Virus record (IMG/VR): IMGVR_UViG_3300045988_096647 | Length of the DNA: 5,563 nucleotides | Direction: 5' to 3' (one strand) | DNA from: a virus | Part shown: piece by piece, positions 1-5,563 of the stretch | How positions within the stretch are numbered: the stretch's first letter is position 1 | Layout: every line of letters starts with the position of its first letter | Translations under genes and position numbers: made by a program | The notes under the pieces: model-generated | What the model saw: only the letters and a program-made list of their open reading frames with translations | Database searches by the model: none | Told to the model about the DNA's origin: nothing

Positions 1-340
1 GAATACCAGAGCCAAATTTTTTACGAAGACGTTTCATGAATTTCTGAAACACTTCCTTGTGAACGCGACCATCAACAGGAATGTTTTCAGGATTGTATGT
101 AAGAGTAATAAAGCTGCCAACACGGTCAGAAGTCTCAAACTCGTGAACACATCGCATAGCCCATTGACGGCTATATTCTAATCTGCAGCCAACGCACTGA
201 CCACAAGGGACATAAATCGTTTCCGGTAACTTGCCGAGAGGACGCCATGCGTTGCCGTAATTAGCAGTCAATGGCCGTTTGCCGGTCTCTTTATTAATAG
301 ATTTAGAGTACCACATGGGAATCGGATGATAGCAAGGCAT
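1..340 (-). CDS. Replication initiation protein (Microviridae VP4 / phiX174 A-like rolling-circle HUH endonuclease), N-terminal segment. The gene starts at ATG 340 and runs off the window start, continuing at 5444->4867 on the circular genome; full length 305 aa.
   Basis: Translating the minus strand by hand from ATG at 340 gives MPCYHPIPMWYSKSINKETGKRPLTANYGNAWRPLGKLPETIYVPCGQCVGCRLEYSRQWAMRCVHEFETSDRVGSFITLTYNPENIPVDGRVHKEVFQKFMKRLRKKFGSGI... This joins in frame to the 209-aa ORF 4867..5496 through the 119-bp duplicated end. It contains the Cys cluster CGQCVGCR and rolling-circle motif 1 (FITLTY). A GAGGTGA ribosome-binding site sits 5 nt upstream of the ATG. Confidence 0.92.
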   Translation of the reverse strand, partial: MPCYHPIPMWYSKSINKETGKRPLTANYGNAWRPLGKLPETIYVPCGQCVGCRLEYSRQWAMRCVHEFETSDRVGSFITLTYNPENIPVDGRVHKEVFQKFMKRLRKKFGSGI

Positions 341-367
341 AGCATCACCTCAACAACACAACCAACG

Positions 368-500
368 GGAAAAGGGGCATGTATAATAAAATATCTACAG
401 TACGGCAATCAGCAAAAACCGTTTTAAAACATGTCCAACAGGGGAAAGGTTATACACAACAAAATATCTGCCGTACGACAAAATACTAAAGACGAAAACC
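368..500. repeat. Two imperfect direct repeats of ~55 bp (A 368..420, B 441..500) with 73-bp periodicity. The conserved core is AAAATATCTNCNGTACGNCAA (A 388..408, B 461..481; 18/21 identical), flanked by GGGRAAAGG on one side and RAAAACC on the other. The repeats lie in the non-coding interval between the J-like ORF and the rep start; copy B overlaps the 3' end of the J-like ORF (486..599). Candidate rep promoter/operator or origin-associated iterons.
   Basis: Direct alignment of the two segments from the sequence. Copy B also contains TTATACACA (450..458), which matches the DnaA-box consensus TTATNCACA. Both copies contain a GTACG core. Confidence 0.6.
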
Positions 501-599
501 ACCACGCATCGGAATGGGGCGCTTGTTCTTCGGATTAACTGTCATACCACGTCTAAAATTTTTACTAGATTTCTTTTTACTCATTTTGTTTCGTTTCAT
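486..599 (-). CDS. Small, highly basic DNA-binding protein, 37 aa. It is analogous to phiX174 J and to the Chlamydia-phage/gokushovirus ORF8 (VP8) DNA-packaging protein. It is absent from the supplied ORF track because it is shorter than 60 aa.
   Basis: Hand translation of the minus strand from ATG at 599 to the TAG stop at 488..486 gives MKRNKMSKKKSSKNFRRGMTVNPKNKRPIPMRGGFRL (13 K/R in 37 residues). A GAAAGGA ribosome-binding site lies 8 nt upstream. It sits in the intergenic space on the coding strand just upstream of rep. The C-terminal RGGFRL resembles the ends of gokushovirus small basic proteins; this is from memory and unverified. Confidence 0.65.
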   Translation of the reverse strand: MKRNKMSKKKSSKNFRRGMTVNPKNKRPIPMRGGFRL

Positions 600-708
600 A
601 ATATCAATCCTTTCTCAAAATAAAGCATCAATAATGCTGACAACAAAAACCAATACAACAAACGCAATGGACAAAGCAAGCAACGAAGCGCAGCAAAACA
701 AAATAAAC

Positions 709-915
709 TTAATCATGTTTTAAACTCTCCTCAAAATTCTCCGAACTCCGAAGGCTTTCGCCGGATAAAATCCGAATAAAGAAGCCAACATCAACTTTAT
801 GACGAAGAAATAAAAGGGGCATACGGTTATATATCCGAATGACCTCGAGGAACTGTTTTAAACGCAGATATTCGCTCTCCGTACAATAAATACTTCTACT
901 TTTCTTGACATCCAT
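709..915 (-). CDS. Hypothetical protein, 68 aa (orf68); no recognisable family.
   Basis: ATG at 915 is preceded by a GAGAGG ribosome-binding site with a 9-nt spacer, and by a near-consensus sigma70 promoter. It is on the coding strand in an otherwise gene-free interval between VP2 and the J-like ORF. Sequence: MDVKKSRSIYCTESEYLRLKQFLEVIRIYNRMPLLFLRHKVDVGFFIRILSGESLRSSENFEESLKHD. Confidence 0.45.
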   Translation of the reverse strand: MDVKKSRSIYCTESEYLRLKQFLEVIRIYNRMPLLFLRHKVDVGFFIRILSGESLRSSENFEESLKHD

Positions 916-931
916 TTAAATCAACCTCTCT

Positions 932-988
932 TTCTATGTTTAAAGTATAACATAATTTAAATAGAATGTCAATAGAAATATAATAGAA
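932..988. repeat. Hexamer repeats around the promoter. ATAGAA occurs three times on the plus strand at exact 11-bp phasing (961..966, 972..977, 983..988), with an inverted copy TTCTAT at 932..937 on the other side of the -10 element. Operator-like arrangement.
   Basis: Read directly from the sequence. The three direct copies span the -35 element; the inverted copy lies between the -10 and the ribosome-binding site. Confidence 0.5.
944..972 (-). promoter_or_regulatory. Candidate sigma70-type promoter on the coding strand: -35 TTGACA (972..967), 17-bp spacer, -10 TATACT (949..944). It would drive orf68 and possibly the J-like ORF and rep.
   Basis: Minus-strand sequence reads TTCTATTGACAttctatttaaattatgtTATACTttaaacatagaaagagaggttgatttaaATG. 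The hexamers match the consensus at 6/6 and 5/6 with optimal spacing, about 35 nt upstream of the orf68 ribosome-binding site and ATG. Confidence 0.5.
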
Positions 989-990
989 AT

Positions 991-1965
991 TTACTTGAAA
1001 AGTCTAGGAATTAAACCTAACGGACTGGCATCAGCAAGACCCTTGGCATTGCCAAGTATACGAGATAAATTTTCATACAAACCATTAGGATCCACACCCG
1101 AATAGCGATTTTGAACCTGATATTGCTTCAAATCGATTTCAGAACGAACACGATTAATATACTTCAACGCATTGTCTTCACTCTGACCTTTAGCCTGAAG
1201 GATCTCAACAAATGTACGGGCATTAAGTTCACCTTGTATATACTTCTGAGTAAGATATTTAACTTGATTTAATTGAGTTTCCGAATCAAGGCGCAAAACC
1301 TCATGCATATTTTTTTCAATATCACTATCAATTTTAGCGATTTCATGAGGTAAAAGCGCATTAATACGATTTGTCTGCGCGCCAAGATTTGCAGTCGTTG
1401 CGTTCGCAACATCCGTTTGAGGGCCTTGAATATAACGTGCCTCAGCATTTGTTTTAGAAGTAAGACTACCAGATGTATAGTCAGCCGAAGCAGTTAAAGA
1501 ATTGGCATTCGCAAGCATCTGCGCAATCTGCGATTCTAAAAGTAATGCTTGATAATCTGCAGAAATAGCAGCACTACGACCTTCCATTTCTTTTTTATAC
1601 GTATCAGCTTGCATATTGTCATTTTGAAATTCAAGATTTTTTTGCTGTTGTTCTTGAACTTTACGAGATGTTCTCGCATTATACATATTGGACATGGCGT
1701 TCACACCATTTGAGATATCAGTACCATAGCCAGTATACGCGCCATTAGCACCTTGTGGAGTGCTAGCGCCACTGCCACCAGTAGCGGAAAGAATAGGATT
1801 TAAACCAGCTTTACGAAGATCAGAAACTTCGCGTTGATGAGCCGTATTGCTCATCCGCTCCTGGAACGCCATTTGCTCACGATTCATACCAGCTTGCGCA
1901 TTAGCAGATTTATTAGCAGACCAAATACCAAGCGCAGCGCCAGCAACAGAAGATAACCAACTCAT
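991..1965 (-). CDS. Minor capsid / DNA pilot protein (Microviridae VP2, phiX174 H-like), 324 aa.
   Basis: Position immediately downstream of VP1 on the coding strand. An AAGGAG ribosome-binding site sits 9 nt upstream of ATG 1965 and overlaps the VP1 stop (TAAGGAG). The N-terminus is hydrophobic and Gly-rich ([13 protein letters not shown]). The motif [16 protein letters not shown] is typical of gokushovirus VP2. The central region is long, Q/N-rich and predicted coiled-coil. Confidence 0.85.
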
Positions 1966-1978
1966 ACATCATCGCTCC

Positions 1979-3619
1979 TTAGAAATGATCAAGCATACCA
2001 GGAACACCGTAAACAGGCATAGGACGAGCGCATTTGAGATCCAAATATACATCAAGATAAAATTGTGGTTCATTCTGTACGGCGCTGATACGCTTAATTG
2101 CTTGATAACTAGCCTGATCCTGAATAAACTCACCATTAAGAGCTGGAAGCGAATCAAATTTTTGAGCAAAATGCCATACGTCAACAGATTGAGCGTATGT
2201 AGAACGCATCTTACCGGTGATAATAGAAGGATGATACCGACATTCTGCATAACGTTCCTGATAGCCAAAAACATCGTTATCAGCAGCAGTACCTTGTGCA
2301 TAAATTTCCTTATTGAGGACGGCCTGTTCGCCAAGATGAGCAAAAGAAGGCCAATAAAACTCTTCACGAGTCTGACGAAGCCACGTTTTGTTAATACCTT
2401 GCTGATAGCTTAAATCAGTACGAACATTGCAAAGACCGATAACGATACCATGTTCAGTAAAAGATTTATTAAATCCATGAATTTTAGTAGACATTAATGC
2501 ATACGCAGACAGATTACCTTGCGGACTCGTCGTATCGGTAGAGCTTGTCTGCTGGACAGGATTAAACATAATCGGCGTAGAATCACCGCCAAGATATTCA
2601 GAACGCTGCAAACGGGCATCAGGAGAAATAACACCAAAATGCGAACGAATAATTTCAGTATAACGCGTACCACCACGAGCGTCTTTTTCATAAAAACGCT
2701 GAAGAGCAAATGCGGAACGCAACGAATTAATCGTGACCGCCGTTGCAGAAGATAAGTCAACCTTGGCTACCGAAGCATCAGCAGACCAACCTTTAACATG
2801 GCCCGAAAATTTAGGAAGACCAGAAACACCATGATAAAAAGAAAAAGAACGATCAAAGGAGTCAGAAACAGACAAAGAACCTGAAACAGAAGGATCAGAA
2901 GATTCTATAGTACCAGAAATCGGCAAAAATCCGGAAACGGAAGCAGTTTGACCTAACGGCAATTCAACACCAGGGCCTTTTTGAGGCCAGGGCAAAGCAC
3001 TTGTAAAATAATCATGACGCTTGCCGCGGTAAAAGCATATAGCACTTGTAGCATCTTGTGTGGCATCACCACCGTAAGCATCATCATCAGAAGACGCAGC
3101 AGAAAGCGGTTGACCGGTCTGAATAGATACAGCATTCTGCAGATTTTCATCACGGAACCAATCGTTATATACTTTCCAATACGCCCTAAACGGAAACGCA
3201 GAAACACTCAATTTGTTTTGGACATCTGTTGGAAAACCGAAATAGTCCCATAACGTCTGTACCTGCGCATTAGTAGCCGTGATTTGGGGAACTTCGTATT
3301 CTTTAGACTGATAACCTGCAAGCGGATTTTCGCCATTAAACTCTCGCCAATGTTTCCACAACAAACGATATGGAACAAAAAAGAAAAATGTATCCATGTA
3401 AGCATTATCCATTGCCGGAACAATCGGTGTGGCCATTCGGCCAAAAAGAGTAGCTTTACAATTAAATGTATCGCCTGGATAAACTTCATCAATATAAAAA
3501 GGAACAAGACGTCCTGCGTCTAATGTCGTTTTAACAGTATGGCTACGCTTAAAAGAAGAACGAGGTATCTGATTTTGTGGAGCCATAGCAAAATTATGCT
3601 GACTAGCATTCTTTGACAT
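1979..3619 (-). CDS. Major capsid protein VP1 (Microviridae F-like, single jelly-roll), 546 aa from ATG at 3619. The ORF track's start at 3658 is a TTG with no Shine-Dalgarno sequence.
   Basis: It is the longest ORF. The N-terminus MSKNASQHNFAMAPQNQIPRSSFKRSHTVKTTLDAGRLVPFYIDEVYPGDTF matches the conserved gokushovirus VP1 N-terminal pattern (RS.F..SH..KTT.D.G.LVP...DEV.PGDT). A GGAG lies 10 nt upstream of ATG 3619. A Ser-rich variable insertion, corresponding to ~2711..2959, is consistent with the three-fold 'mushroom' loop of gokushovirus capsids. Confidence 0.95.
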   Translation of the reverse strand: MSKNASQHNFAMAPQNQIPRSSFKRSHTVKTTLDAGRLVPFYIDEVYPGDTFNCKATLFGRMATPIVPAMDNAYMDTFFFFVPYRLLWKHWREFNGENPLAGYQSKEYEVPQITATNAQVQTLWDYFGFPTDVQNKLSVSAFPFRAYWKVYNDWFRDENLQNAVSIQTGQPLSAASSDDDAYGGDATQDATSAICFYRGKRHDYFTSALPWPQKGPGVELPLGQTASVSGFLPISGTIESSDPSVSGSLSVSDSFDRSFSFYHGVSGLPKFSGHVKGWSADASVAKVDLSSATAVTINSLRSAFALQRFYEKDARGGTRYTEIIRSHFGVISPDARLQRSEYLGGDSTPIMFNPVQQTSSTDTTSPQGNLSAYALMSTKIHGFNKSFTEHGIVIGLCNVRTDLSYQQGINKTWLRQTREEFYWPSFAHLGEQAVLNKEIYAQGTAADNDVFGYQERYAECRYHPSIITGKMRSTYAQSVDVWHFAQKFDSLPALNGEFIQDQASYQAIKRISAVQNEPQFYLDVYLDLKCARPMPVYGVPGMLDHF

Positions 3620-3673
3620 ATTTATACATCTCCGATCTACAATATTTAACACCCTCAAAATAGGGAGGTGTCA

Positions 3674-3708
3674 GTCGTACCAGTTACATCAAGTAGAACC
3701 GGTACGAC
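3674..3708. other. Perfect 8-bp inverted repeat (GTCGTACC ... GGTACGAC) with a 19-nt loop in the VP3-VP1 intergenic region. Candidate stem-loop: leaky terminator, mRNA stabiliser, or ssDNA structural/recognition element.
   Basis: Plus 3674..3681 gtcgtacc is the reverse complement of 3701..3708 ggtacgac. It is the only long perfect palindrome arm pair I found in a non-coding interval. It shares GTACGAC with repeat B (473..479). Confidence 0.5.
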
Positions 3709-3779
3709 CTGAAAACAAAGGTGACAACCATGCGGTTTTTCAGCTTTTCTGAGAAAAAGTGACATTTATTGAGAAAATG

Positions 3780-4226
3780 TTATTCAGTAACCGAATTTCC
3801 TGCACTATTATTCAACTTATTCGCATTAATATTGGAATCTTGCTGTTCAATGGTAGTCTTAGTAGCAAGGCCCATCGCAACTAATTCATCAACATTATTC
3901 GGGTTATCGACGAATTCCAAAAAAGCACCAGGATCATAGTTAAAACGTTTTCGAATATCAAGTGGAAGATTATCGAAATTAGCTTTAGCTTGAAGCATCT
4001 GATTGTACATCTCCTGTGCACTATCCGGAAGCTCTGCAAAATCAGCAAAAATGGGTTCAGAAGGCTGACCATCGCCATGGAAAGAAGGCATAACACCCGA
4101 AGAATTATACATCGCAATAATATAATTGATATCGGCTTCATCTTTAAATTGCTGCTGCGTCAAAGACGGTAGGCTAGAAGACCAGCCAGCACGAACGCCA
4201 GCATCATATCTAGAGCGTATCTCCAT
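3780..4226 (-). CDS. Internal scaffolding protein VP3 (phiX174 B-like functional analogue), 148 aa from ATG 4226. An in-frame upstream ATG at 4316, with its own ribosome-binding site, would give 178 aa.
   Basis: Position directly upstream of VP1. Typical gokushovirus VP3 size. The sequence MEIRSRYDAGVRAGWSSSLPSLTQQQFKDEADINYIIAMYN...PLDIRKRFNYDPGAFLEFVDNPNN has the acidic/aromatic character and SL..QQFKDE.DIN pattern of gokushovirus VP3 (from memory). An AAAGGAG ribosome-binding site lies 8 nt upstream of ATG 4226. Confidence 0.8.
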   Translation of the reverse strand: MEIRSRYDAGVRAGWSSSLPSLTQQQFKDEADINYIIAMYNSSGVMPSFHGDGQPSEPIFADFAELPDSAQEMYNQMLQAKANFDNLPLDIRKRFNYDPGAFLEFVDNPNNVDELVAMGLATKTTIEQQDSNINANKLNNSAGNSVTE

Positions 4227-4488
4227 TACTTTCACTCCTTTCGACATTAGCACACTGCATAGCATGACAAACAAAAGTAGGCATATCATACGGTCTAAGA
4301 AGACCCTTAACATCATCAAACTCTCCTAAACAATATAAATGAAAATCACCTAAATGCTGACTAACTGTACTCCGAGAATCATTGCATAAATCAGTAAAGC
4401 TGCGAATAGAAACCAAGTCATTAACGGCAAAATACGGCGTATTAAAGACTTGTGCCTTATCATCCATGATACTATAAATTTTAAGCAT
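4210..4488 (-). CDS. Small non-structural protein, 92 aa, VP5-like (gokushovirus ORF5 family; proposed phiX174 C-like role in ssDNA synthesis/packaging). The family assignment is tentative.
   Basis: An AAAGGAG ribosome-binding site lies 10 nt upstream of ATG 4488. Its position between rep and VP3 and its size match gokushovirus VP5. The N-terminal pattern KIYSIMDDKAQVFNTPYFAVNDLVSIRSFTDLCND resembles the VP5 consensus (..D.K...F..PFF..N...A.R.F.D..N) as I recall it. The 3' end overlaps the VP3 start by 17 nt in another frame. Confidence 0.6.
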   Translation of the reverse strand: MLKIYSIMDDKAQVFNTPYFAVNDLVSIRSFTDLCNDSRSTVSQHLGDFHLYCLGEFDDVKGLLRPYDMPTFVCHAMQCANVERSESNGDTL

Positions 4489-4715
4489 TTATAAACAACT
4501 CCTTTGAAAATATCAAAAATAAAATCAAAGAAAACGGTGAAAATAACGGTCAAGATACGTTTTAGAATAGCGAAAATATAATCCATTCCTTCCATGAAAA
4601 TATTTAGTAGTATACGGAGAAAAACAAACAACATCAGTAATATCAGTACTCCGTGTTTGACAGAAAATGCGGAATAAATCGAATCTATCAAAAGATTCGT
4701 AAGCTCGGTGAACAT
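4350..4715 (-). CDS. Speculative overprinted ORF, 121 aa, with three predicted transmembrane-like segments. It is embedded out of frame across orf66, the orf66-VP5 spacer and the 5' half of VP5. Candidate membrane or lysis protein, or a composition artefact.
   Basis: 121 stop-free codons in the third frame of a T-rich region. Hydrophobic stretches: GVLILLMLFVFLRILLNIF, YIFAILKRILTVIFTVFFDFIF and LPLMTWFLFAALLIYAMILGV. ATG 4715 lies 10 nt downstream of the orf66 ATG, so the shared AAAGGAG is 16 nt upstream, which is suboptimal. T-rich DNA yields F/L/I-rich products in any frame. Confidence 0.2.
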   Translation of the reverse strand: MFTELTNLLIDSIYSAFSVKHGVLILLMLFVFLRILLNIFMEGMDYIFAILKRILTVIFTVFFDFIFDIFKGVVYKCLKFIVSWMIRHKSLIRRILPLMTWFLFAALLIYAMILGVQLVSI

Positions 4716-4725
4716 ATATGCGCAT
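4525..4725 (-). CDS. Hypothetical small basic/aromatic protein, 66 aa (orf66), starting at the internal ATG 4725 of the listed 80-aa ORF.
   Basis: An AAAGGAG ribosome-binding site lies exactly 6 nt upstream of ATG 4725 (ctAAAGGAGtcgtatATG). Sequence: MRIYVHRAYESFDRFDLFRIFCQTRSTDITDVVCFSPYTTKYFHGRNGLYFRYSKTYLDRYFHRFL, rich in R/Y/F/H. It is on the coding strand in the rep-VP5 interval. No family recognised. Confidence 0.5.
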   Translation of the reverse strand: MRIYVHRAYESFDRFDLFRIFCQTRSTDITDVVCFSPYTTKYFHGRNGLYFRYSKTYLDRYFHRFL

Positions 4726-4866
4726 ATACGACTCCTTTAGCGAGAAAAGTCCAGAGAAGAACGTCACAAACCGGAGGCTTCACCTACCTTTCAATTTTTA
4801 AAATAAAAAAAACCCTCTCGCTAATATAAGAATATCAAACGGGGGGGGCAAAAAAGCAAATAACAA

Positions 4867-5563
4867 TTATTCATATTCATCCAAATCATTATGAAATCGT
4901 CGAACAAGTCTCATAAGTTTTCGGGCTTTTAAACGTTCTTGAACTTCCATAAATTCAGCTTCTTCTGAAGATATAAGCTCAGCACGACGAAATTTATCTT
5001 GACGAGATTTTTTAACACGCGCAAAAAGATCAGGATCGTCTTTTTCAAGAAGGGAATCGTAATAAACAGGAGGCTTACAAGTAACGCCATCGCGAACAAC
5101 AATAAAATCGTTCGGATATATCTGACTTCTATACTTCTCATACCAATCATGGCCAAGACCAGGCATTCGAGACATCAAAACAAATGGTTGTGTATCTTCA
5201 TCAATATTATCTCCTTTCTGCTTTTTCATGACATAACGAGCAACATACGCACAACTCTCAAACGTAACAAAGCCAACAAGAGAAAAACCATACGGCCAAA
5301 GCGATTCAAGAGACGGACTACGGTAATACTGATAACCACGTTTAACCGTGTGAATAAACAAATCAGGAAACTGAAAGCCAAACAAGACAGCATGATAATG
5401 CGGTCTATGTCGTTGATGGCCATACTCACCACAAGCAAAAAAACGAATACCAGAGCCAAATTTTTTACGAAGACGTTTCATGAATTTCTGAAACACTTCC
5501 TTGTGAACGCGACCATCAACAGGAATGTTTTCAGGATTGTATGTAAGAGTAATAAAGCTGCCA
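4867..5563 (-). CDS. Replication initiation protein (VP4 / A-like), C-terminal segment. The in-window ORF 4867..5496 is the 3' part of the gene; coding continues upstream through the window end. Positions 5445..5563 duplicate 1..119, so this is the same gene as feature 1..340.
   Basis: The HUH motif YGHQRHRPHYHAVLFG and the two-tyrosine catalytic motif YVARYVMKK (compare phiX174 A protein YVAKYVNKK) are present. It is contiguous in frame with the N-terminal segment across the circular junction. Stop codon at 4867..4869. Confidence 0.93.
   Translation of the reverse strand, partial: GSFITLTYNPENIPVDGRVHKEVFQKFMKRLRKKFGSGIRFFACGEYGHQRHRPHYHAVLFGFQFPDLFIHTVKRGYQYYRSPSLESLWPYGFSLVGFVTFESCAYVARYVMKKQKGDNIDEDTQPFVLMSRMPGLGHDWYEKYRSQIYPNDFIVVRDGVTCKPPVYYDSLLEKDDPDLFARVKKSRQDKFRRAELISSEEAEFMEVQERLKARKLMRLVRRFHNDLDEYE
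5445..5563. repeat. Terminal redundancy: an exact 119-bp copy of positions 1..119. It is an artefact of linearising the 5444-bp circular genome, not a biological repeat.
   Basis: Exact identity of 1..119 with 5445..5563 read from the sequence. The rep ORF is continuous across the junction. Confidence 0.95.

Follow-up and report, generated by a model that had tools for sequence, protein, structure and literature searches.

Immediately upstream of rep in the virus record IMGVR_UViG_3300045988_096647 lies a conspicuous direct repeat, and its position raises the question of whether it belongs to the replication origin, governs the supply of Rep, or is a duplication that is simply tolerated. The DNA analyzed, 5,563 nucleotides (nt) in all and referred to here as the window, represents the entire circular genome of a pig-gut gokushovirus, 5444 nt in length, bases 1-119 recurring exactly at 5445-5563, and the coding strand of every gene is the minus strand. 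The spacer between the stop codon of the gene for a small J-like protein (486-488) and the rep start codon (338-340) is 145 nt long (341-485), and the repeat fills it. The initial annotation had described two imperfect direct repeats directly upstream of rep, the distal one extending 15 nt into the 3' end of the J-like open reading frame (ORF), and both statements were confirmed. In a repeat search, 355-408 matched 428-481 over 54 nt at an offset of 73, with 38/54 positions identical (70%); this was the best gapless self-match of the genome at offsets of 20-300 and lay beyond all 200 dinucleotide shuffles, the maximum of which was 34. With one indel of 6-7 nt, the similarity of the copies reaches GGTTTT at 420 and 500, the latter lying within the J-like ORF (486-599). 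The 21-nt core that the annotation had singled out is also present (388-408 and 461-481; 18/21 identical), but it is marginal when taken alone, as 3 of the 200 shuffles also reached 18.

Each copy forms part of a larger unit. Unit B, the rep-distal one (421-500, minus strand; coding strand GGTTTTCGTCTTTAGTATTTTGTCGTACGGCAGATATTTTGTTGTGTATAACCTTTCCCCTGTTGGACATGTTTTAAAAC; nhmmer E 1e-10), opens within the last 15 nt of the J-like ORF and closes with TTTTAAAACGG, which comparison with the single-unit relative L297 (..TGTTTTTAAGAGGTGAT; TTTTTAAGAGG) identifies as a decayed Shine-Dalgarno (SD) region of rep. Unit A, the rep-proximal one (348-420, minus strand; coding strand GGTTTTTGCTGATTGCCGTACTGTAGATATTTTATTATACATGCCCCTTTTCCCGTTGGTTGTGTTGTTGAGG; nhmmer E 6e-7), has a remnant of the J 3' end (GGTTTT) at its start and the functional SD of rep at its end; the remainder of the SD and the ATG come after it, and the SD itself, as read from the sequence, is GAGGTGAT at 343-350 on the minus strand. 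On the coding (viral) strand the repeat core reads CGTACnGnAGATATTTT; on the plus strand it is AAAATATCTGCCGTACGACAA in unit B (461-481) and AAAATATCTACAGTACGGCAA in unit A (388-408), both features belonging to the minus strand. It is the form that ‘block 1’ of the cassette takes in the lineage of the window, and in unit B it aligns with TGATGTTGTACATTTTGCTAT of single-unit relatives. A second block, also on the minus strand, occupies 426-444 in unit B (CCCCTGTTGGACATGTTTT) and 352-370 in unit A (TCCCGTTGGTTGTGTTGTT); its counterparts in the alignments are CCTGGTTAGCCATGTTTT in a separate two-unit group of relatives, designated the R group, and CCTGTTTAGCATGTTTT in the single-unit genome L090.

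The same spacer was compared in about 35 genomes with Rep 77-87% identical to that of the window, drawn from GenBank, IMG/VR, JGI/ENA metagenomes and Logan; the GenBank relatives are Gokushovirinae from pig faeces. Three states were found. In the majority, the J-rep spacer holds no unit and consists of 18-35 nt with an SD only; in L090, L091, L296 and L297 it holds one unit of about 70 nt; and two units are found in the window and in the R group (L001, L011, L012, L014, L016, L019, L167). The nearest relatives of the window, L296 and L297 (Rep 87% and 84% identical), are both single-unit genomes. In the Rep tree the window holds the basal position, L090 and L091 with their single units form the next branch, and the R group falls within the genomes that have no unit, the Reps of two-unit and unit-less genomes being 92-96% identical. 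An nhmmer profile of the unit matched the J-rep spacer of unit-bearing genomes only and had no match in S-type genomes, nor in over 100 further gokushoviruses. When collections were scanned for the window core, for the end of the R-type unit and for the block of the single-unit genomes, the outcome was chance matches in large phage contigs, or none. By these comparisons the cassette is a small homologous family, lineage-specific and dispensable. Strongly constrained non-coding cassettes that vary between zero, one and two copies among very close pig-gut gokushoviruses would thus offer a natural series in which control of Rep supply can be studied. No Rep more than 87% identical to that of the window was found among 5.8 billion proteins.

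Repeats upstream of rep are not a general feature of the subfamily: they were seen in 12/130 other gokushovirus genomes, mostly as low-complexity sequence, and in neither Chp2 nor phiMH2K. Two other arrangements were encountered in the course of this survey. The unrelated gokushovirus L151 (Rep 40%) has, directly upstream of rep, a 26-nt tandem repeat (28/30 identical) with the palindrome TCCAGG..CCTGGA, detected within the 250 nt upstream of the gene. In a group with Rep at 52% (L096, L021, L023, L099, L110), a direct repeat of 29-30 nt with a spacing of 105 (..ATCTTTGGAAAGTGAGGTGAT..) lies about 150-260 nt upstream of rep and resembles duplicated ribosome-binding regions of the small ORFs between VP2 and rep. 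Furthermore, most relatives that have no cassette between J and rep carry a different conserved non-coding cassette of about 85 nt, termed beta (..GGTTTTCCCTTGATTGCC..CGTATTAGTGGAACGGTGACGTACTGTGGCGTTTAGCC..), in the spacer between VP2 and ORF68, an ORF of 68 codons; it falls within the first ~90 nt past the VP2 stop in L005, L007, L008, L010, L013, L015, L084, L085, L087, L089 and L169, and is missing from the window and the R group. Homology of beta, as found in S-type relatives, to the window units was considered and rejected, there being one marginal match (p 0.047) in 12 comparisons.

How the repeat came about can be read from its parts with near certainty: alignment points to a lineage-specific tandem duplication, about 73-80 nt long, of the J 3' end, the cassette and the SD together. 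All units can be aligned with one another; identity is 62% between the two window copies and 66% between the two R-group copies, but 42% between the window's proximal copy and that of the R group. The junctions between the copies also differ. Both window copies begin with the GGTTTT of the J 3' end, and at their B/A junction a decayed SD (..TGTTTTAAAACGG; in L297 ..TGTTTTTAAGAGG) is joined to that GGTTTT, whereas the R-group junction falls inside a common GTTTT(A)G homology. Because the nearest relatives are single-unit genomes, the copies are closer within than between lineages, and the junctions are not the same, two independent tandem duplications are indicated. The ancestral state is a single cassette of about 70 nt, as retained by the closest relatives, with a conserved 5' block TTAGTCTGATGTTGTACATTTTGCTATGTACA and a 3' block CCTGTTTAGCYATGTTTT abutting the SD. 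At the core site the single-unit genomes have CTGATGTTGTACATTTTGCTAT and both window copies have the derived CGTACnGnAGATATTTT; since the derived form is common to both copies, the change in the core predates the duplication. The order of events in the window lineage is thus a change of the 5' block to ..CGTACnGnAGATATTTT.., then the duplication, then decay of the distal SD (GAGG to ACGG). The J end (GGTTTTAGG) shares a short homology with the end of the cassette (TGTTTTAGG), which would favor duplication and deletion alike.

Conservation of the repeat upstream of rep in related genomes had been set beforehand as a test; the cassette is absent from most relatives, yet it is constrained in relatives that carry it. 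In the R group, the spacer without its SD differs by 2.3-7.0% between the deepest pairs, compared with 22-27% at third codon positions of J and of rep 1-300 (p to 5e-13), and since this constraint spans all positions it is not of the coding type. The single units differ by 23-38%, compared with 50-57% at rep third positions (p to 8e-8), and a stretch of 27 nt, TTAGTCTGATGTTGTACATTTTGCTAT, is identical in L296 and L297. The window copies are most alike at the 21-nt core, which is the site of the block most conserved in the other lineages. These figures indicate that the homologous cassettes of the relatives are under purifying selection.

An overlapping small gene, or a leader peptide, that runs through the units and ends at the rep SD was also considered. 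An ORF of 36 amino acids (aa) can indeed be read in the window (505-395) and of 33-48 aa in the R group, in which 6/10 substitutions fall on third positions of its frame. Its third positions are nevertheless as conserved as the others (3%, compared with 25% in neighboring genes), the frame is shifted in L011 and L014 and stops after 2-6 codons in L090 and L091, the conserved 3' block is not read in the same frame in the R group as in the window, and there is no SD ahead of the ORF. We consider a gene here the least probable of all the explanations.

The only strong promoter of the genome (TTGACA-17-TATACT with upstream TG) is located at 972-944 on the minus strand, in the VP2-ORF68 spacer, and is conserved in relatives. 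No sigma-70 promoter, sought as -35/-10 hexamers spaced by 16-18, and no intrinsic terminator, sought as a GC-rich hairpin with a T run, was found in the units of the window spacer, L090 or L091, and those of L012 gave 9/12 matches at the level of chance. With the sole strong promoter at 972-944 and neither promoter nor terminator in the spacer, transcription should pass through the spacer and make it an intercistronic leader. A Rho utilization site was tried and rejected, C being rarer than G in all spacers. As a separate observation, three direct ATTTCTATT-like repeats and an inverted repeat, TATGTT/AACATA, flank this promoter-like site within 916-990 and may represent an operator.

The reading toward which we lean, tentatively and at somewhat less than even confidence, is that the cassette is a cis-regulatory leader or operator, variable in copy number, that tunes the supply of Rep. 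We infer this because the cassette occupies the transcribed but untranslated gap between J and rep and extends to the rep SD, because the constraint on it concerns its sequence and not its shape, and because it has been doubled twice. The cassette would lie in the untranslated part of a polycistronic transcript from 972-944 that runs through ORF68, ORF33 (an ORF of 33 codons) and J and then into rep. Rep is needed in far smaller amounts than J, and a sequence-specific cis element in this place would set the amount of Rep relative to the abundantly needed J. Its target might be the sense RNA, whose processing, stability or loading with ribosomes it would affect; alternatively, it would offer a binding platform in the form of duplex DNA. 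The copy number of 0, 1 or 2 would be a tuning knob for Rep supply. Phages of the phiX174 type have the promoter PA in the H-A spacer and leaky terminators after J, F, G and H. The cassette resembles these intergenic signals in that a non-coding stretch between the gene of a small DNA-binding protein and the next gene would set their relative expression; it differs from them in having no detectable sigma-70-type promoter or intrinsic terminator in any lineage.

Several results weigh against a cis-regulatory role. The whole unit of L090 and L091 differs by about 30%, compared with 28% at third positions of rep 1-300, and by 31%, compared with 19% at third positions of the whole rep, and so changes no more slowly than synonymous sites. 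The lineage of the window is represented by one genome, so that the constraint figures come solely from the units of relatives, and the window copies now lie far from the consensus of the conserved single units. The cassette is lacking in most relatives, and among the ORF68, ORF33 and J variants that were checked, no phage protein was found to co-vary with unit type. Folding of the window spacer was no better than that of shuffled sequences, either as single-stranded DNA (ssDNA; z +0.29) or as RNA (z +0.59), and RNAalifold returned no consensus secondary structure across the units of the different lineages. Masking of the SD was likewise rejected, the predicted unpaired probability of the rep SD lying within the distribution of shuffled leaders. 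Overall, the mechanism is the weak part of the account.

Hairpins are found in the R group only (RNA z about -2.3; ssDNA z -1.6 for the R spacer). Substitutions in them are G-C/G-U exchanges, a sense-strand signature, and two pairs show compensatory A-T to G-C changes between paralogues. Searches of Rfam and for tRNA and tmRNA, and a TRF search, gave nothing relevant.

The chief rival to cis-regulation is that the units are a tolerated relic: slippage or an unequal exchange would have produced the duplication where the J 3' end and the cassette end share a short homology, GTTTT(A)GG, and in this genome both copies would now be without function and slowly decaying. It is to be noted that the window units are only 62-70% identical, that both have lost the TGTACA..TGTACA block, which is nearly invariant in single-unit relatives, and that the distal SD has decayed; the lack of structure, promoter and terminator in the window spacer, and of the cassette itself in most relatives, also speaks for a relic. 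Such an element is, however, difficult to reconcile with a 5.4-kb ssDNA genome in a T=1 capsid, where 73 useless bases would rarely be kept through about 35% divergence. Moreover, the same cassette was independently duplicated in the R group, where both copies are strongly constrained, and the similarity of the window copies peaks exactly at the part of the cassette that is most conserved in other lineages. A relic is possible but, in our judgment, unlikely. Returning to a regulatory role, its most specific form is that of a sequence-specific control element with a block of about 30 nt that is read by a trans-acting factor, nearly invariant in single-copy lineages and re-specified in the lineage of the window, the cassette having been independently doubled in two lineages to change the dose. 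We hold this detailed version to be doubtful. The reader of the block could be Rep, the ORF68 protein, which is ribbon-helix-helix-like, or a host protein, and if this is true the cassette would work like an iteron or operator array of a plasmid, detached from the origin and governing the supply of Rep.

The question of the origin itself led away from the repeats, which, given their distribution among relatives and the hairpin described next, are not the replication origin and do not hold the Rep nick site. The initial annotation had seen in them candidates for Rep-binding iterons or origin-associated sequence; this fails on both of the counts that the annotation had itself named as refuting. 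Most close relatives have no cassette, among them genomes with Reps 92-96% identical to those of two-unit genomes, and a much better candidate, an invariant phiX174-like hairpin, lies at 3668-3708 on the minus strand, in the VP3-VP1 spacer (3620-3779). The hairpin reads GTCGTACCGGTT-CTACTTGATGT-AACTGGTACGAC at 3708-3674, then TGACAC, with GACTGACAC coming after the loop CTACTTGAT. What stands of the annotation is a repeated non-coding stretch just 5' of rep, and some cis-acting part in connection with that gene is still its most plausible reading. When 22 clade members were aligned over the whole genome, only two invariant runs of at least 14 nt emerged, and both are in this spacer: TAAATGTCACTTTTT at 3754-3768, and ACTTGATGTAACTGG at 3680-3694, which comprises the hairpin loop and the 3' arm. 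Compensatory changes among the relatives were seen in the origin-like stem and in neighboring hairpins, and the spacer as ssDNA folds into multiple hairpins at -22.7 kcal/mol (z -4.5; 0/200 shuffles).

The hairpin also extends well beyond the clade. A perfect stem of 7-16 bp surrounds CTTGAT in 108/147 gokushovirus loci on the coding strand, compared with 3 on the other strand, with stem sequences that vary widely, and CTTGATGTAA...GA[CG]TGACAC is common to 65/67 distinct 48-mers; Chlamydia phage Chp2 has a 14-bp stem with the loop TCTACTTGAT after VP3. The motif is collinear with the 30-nt origin of phiX174, CAACTTGATATTAATAACACTATAGACCAC, which was located at phiX174 4299-4328 and is nicked at G/A. 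The window counterpart, ..CTACTTGATGTAACTGGTACGACTGACAC at 3668-3708, likewise has the C-ACTTGAT start and the GAC-AC end; it lies in the loop of a hairpin and does not vary within the clade. Nothing comparable is present in the repeats except that AGATATT in their core loosely resembles TGATATT of the phiX174 origin, and no ACTTGAT-type nick motif occurs in 341-500. Local alignment of the J-rep spacer with the origin region was not significant (p 0.46), and on the circle the repeats are about 2.2-3.2 kb from the hairpin. The hairpin at 3668-3708 is probably the plus-strand origin of the Gokushovirinae. No description of either the cassette or the gokushovirus origin hairpin was found in the literature searched, and earlier reports are possible. 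The repeat finding is of limited importance in itself and shows that a conspicuous repeat beside rep is not the origin; the hairpin, present in more than 100 gokushovirus genomes, is the more useful by-product and makes the gokushovirus nick site directly testable.

Iterons could still serve apart from the nick site, as a distant ‘bind’ locus for Rep or as an autoregulatory operator for VP4, in the manner of rolling-circle replication plasmids. In these plasmids Rep binds direct repeats away from the nick site, as with the bind repeats of pMV158 RepB, and pUB110 RepU spreads onto and covers its own repU promoter (PMC5703833). The direct repeats of the window stand immediately 5' of rep, and the paralogous units are more alike than the orthologous ones, as would be the case with iterons co-evolving with their binder. 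Also, GTCGTAC occurs three times only in the genome, namely in both arms of the origin hairpin (3708 minus, 3674 plus) and in unit B (479 minus). Nonetheless, this heptamer is missing in the R-group units, even though it is found in the R-group origin stem; an origin mimic built on it was rejected for that reason and for the non-significant local alignment given above. The related motif YCGTACNG occurs five times on the coding strand, with 5' bases at 405, 478, 2082, 2423 and 3707, compared with 0.21 expected; relatives have 0-2 sites, and an enrichment peculiar to the window speaks against iterons, as does the fact that upstream-of-rep repeats are no general gokushovirus feature. Two units or none are found beside Reps that are 92-96% identical and whose origin hairpins are identical or differ at single stem or loop positions. 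The likeness to pMV158 and pUB110 is that direct repeats lie near the gene of an HUH initiator and are separable from the nick site, such that more copies could mean stronger binding. The plasmid repeats, however, are less than about 100 bp from the nick hairpin and are indispensable for Rep, whereas the cassette is 2-3 kb away and does not adjoin the nick site, is missing beside near-identical Reps, and has no significant similarity to the origin. We regard Rep-binding iterons as improbable. By analogy, the action of the cassette would come closest to that of the repeat arrays through which rolling-circle plasmids control their supply of initiator.

The opposite strand offers a further candidate role, namely a complementary-strand origin, in which the packaged strand would carry a signal for host priming of minus-strand synthesis. 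Complementary-strand signals differ between related microviruses and sit in intergenic spacers; the cassette is similarly lineage-specific, intergenic and dispensable, and relatives have alternative cassettes in other spacers. The R-group hairpins, with G-T/G-C exchanges specific to the sense strand, would also be compatible with a folded signal. The window spacer, on the other hand, folds as ssDNA no better than shuffled sequences (z +0.29) and the R spacer only weakly so (z -1.6), whereas the multi-hairpin VP3-VP1 spacer (z -4.5) is present in all relatives and is the obvious place for both origins. This role, too, appears improbable.

The initial annotation had further pointed to a perfect match to the DnaA-box consensus in copy B. 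The match is present (TTATACACA to consensus TTATNCACA, 450-458, plus strand), but a functional meaning is not borne out, and the site is best regarded as due to chance or as unconserved, as it is single and has no equivalent at the homologous position of window copy A, of the R-group units, or of L090, L091, L296 and L297, and shows no clustering. The low chance count that had been offered in its favor is no evidence of function, given that the window has 3 matches to the consensus where 0.28 are expected, the other two lying in coding sequence of VP1 (2295-2303) and rep (5349-5357). A lone DnaA-box match of this kind is noise.

Another possibility suggested by the location is a dif-like XerC/XerD site that would allow integration into a chromosome, as in enterogokushoviruses. 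The phage dif of the enterogokushovirus EC6098 lies between VP8 and VP4 (Kirchberger and Ochman 2020, PMC7062461), which is the same genomic position, and some alpavirus proviruses have two dif-like sequences (PMC3091885). The sporadic distribution of the cassette would fit, and the L091 unit scored 23/28 against the 28-bp bacterial dif consensus, DBBBCSBATAATRTAYATTATGTHAANT. The window units, in contrast, scored 20/28, compared with a typical best of 21 in shuffled genomes, with the inner ATAA/TTAT positions unmatched. All clade members whose ends could be checked are free circles of 5.2-5.6 kb, and none is within a bacterial contig; no prophage had Rep above 58%, the best being 51% in 185,579 species genomes and 58% in metagenome contigs. 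In the nearest integrated relatives, moreover, the junction is by VP3/VP1 and not by rep. The cassette thus shares with the EC6098 dif the spacer between the J-like (VP8) gene and VP4, an accessory nature, a sporadic phylogenetic distribution and dispensability for lytic growth, and differs from it in that it is tandemly duplicated and about 70 nt long, the phage dif being one palindrome of 28 bp, and in having no above-chance dif 28-mer and no integrated forms in the clade. A dif function is very improbable.

Two side observations concern integration. In the VP2-ORF68 spacer of L091 (rotated ~4742) and L090 (~4775), GCGCAATAAAATGTGCGTGATGTTAAAA matches the dif consensus with a score of 20-21/28 and includes TGATGTTAAAA, a good likeness of a XerD arm, which makes it a possible dif-like site. 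The more distant L093, L095-L098 and L157 (Rep 52-58%) lie inside long bacterial contigs of up to 1.4 Mb; in L096 the phage part (3369-7800) spans VP1 to VP3 and stops exactly where the origin-like hairpin lies (7709-7745), so that its integration junction adjoins the origin and not rep. Contigs of Veillonella, Phascolarctobacterium and Clostridia contain relatives as well.

The remaining genes of the window are arranged as follows, all on the minus strand. The rep gene starts with the ATG at 340-338 and runs through position 1 to 4867; its product of 305 aa matches PF23343 and has the active-site sequence YVARYVMKK. It is followed by a VP5-like gene (4488-4210; PF20577), the VP3 scaffold gene (4319-3780; PF09675), VP1 (3658-1979; PF02305), the gene of the VP2 pilot protein (1965-991), ORF68 (915-709) and the hydrophobic ORF33 (716-615). 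The J-like or VP8-like gene (MKRNKMSKKKSSKNFRRGMTVNPKNKRPIPMRGGFRL, 486-599) encodes a basic protein of 37 aa that matches PHROG 10695 (E 2e-8), and the order J and then Vp4 is also found in the annotation of phiMH2K. Six sites differ between the window and the IMG/VR contig UViG_3300045988_035660, and the repeats are untouched by them.

Among the small ORFs, ORF68 and ORF33 are kept in all clade members. The N-terminus of the 68-aa protein, KKSRSIYCTESEYLRLK, resembles a ribbon-helix-helix when read by eye, with no Pfam or PHROG match, and its C-terminus occurs in two or three variants; the 33-aa product is a single hydrophobic helix and a possible lysis or membrane peptide. Lastly, the region from the rep stop to the VP5 start (~4489-4866), about 380 nt that hold no convincing gene, has two 1-nt deletions relative to the IMG/VR contig and is the most variable, indel-rich part of the clade alignment.

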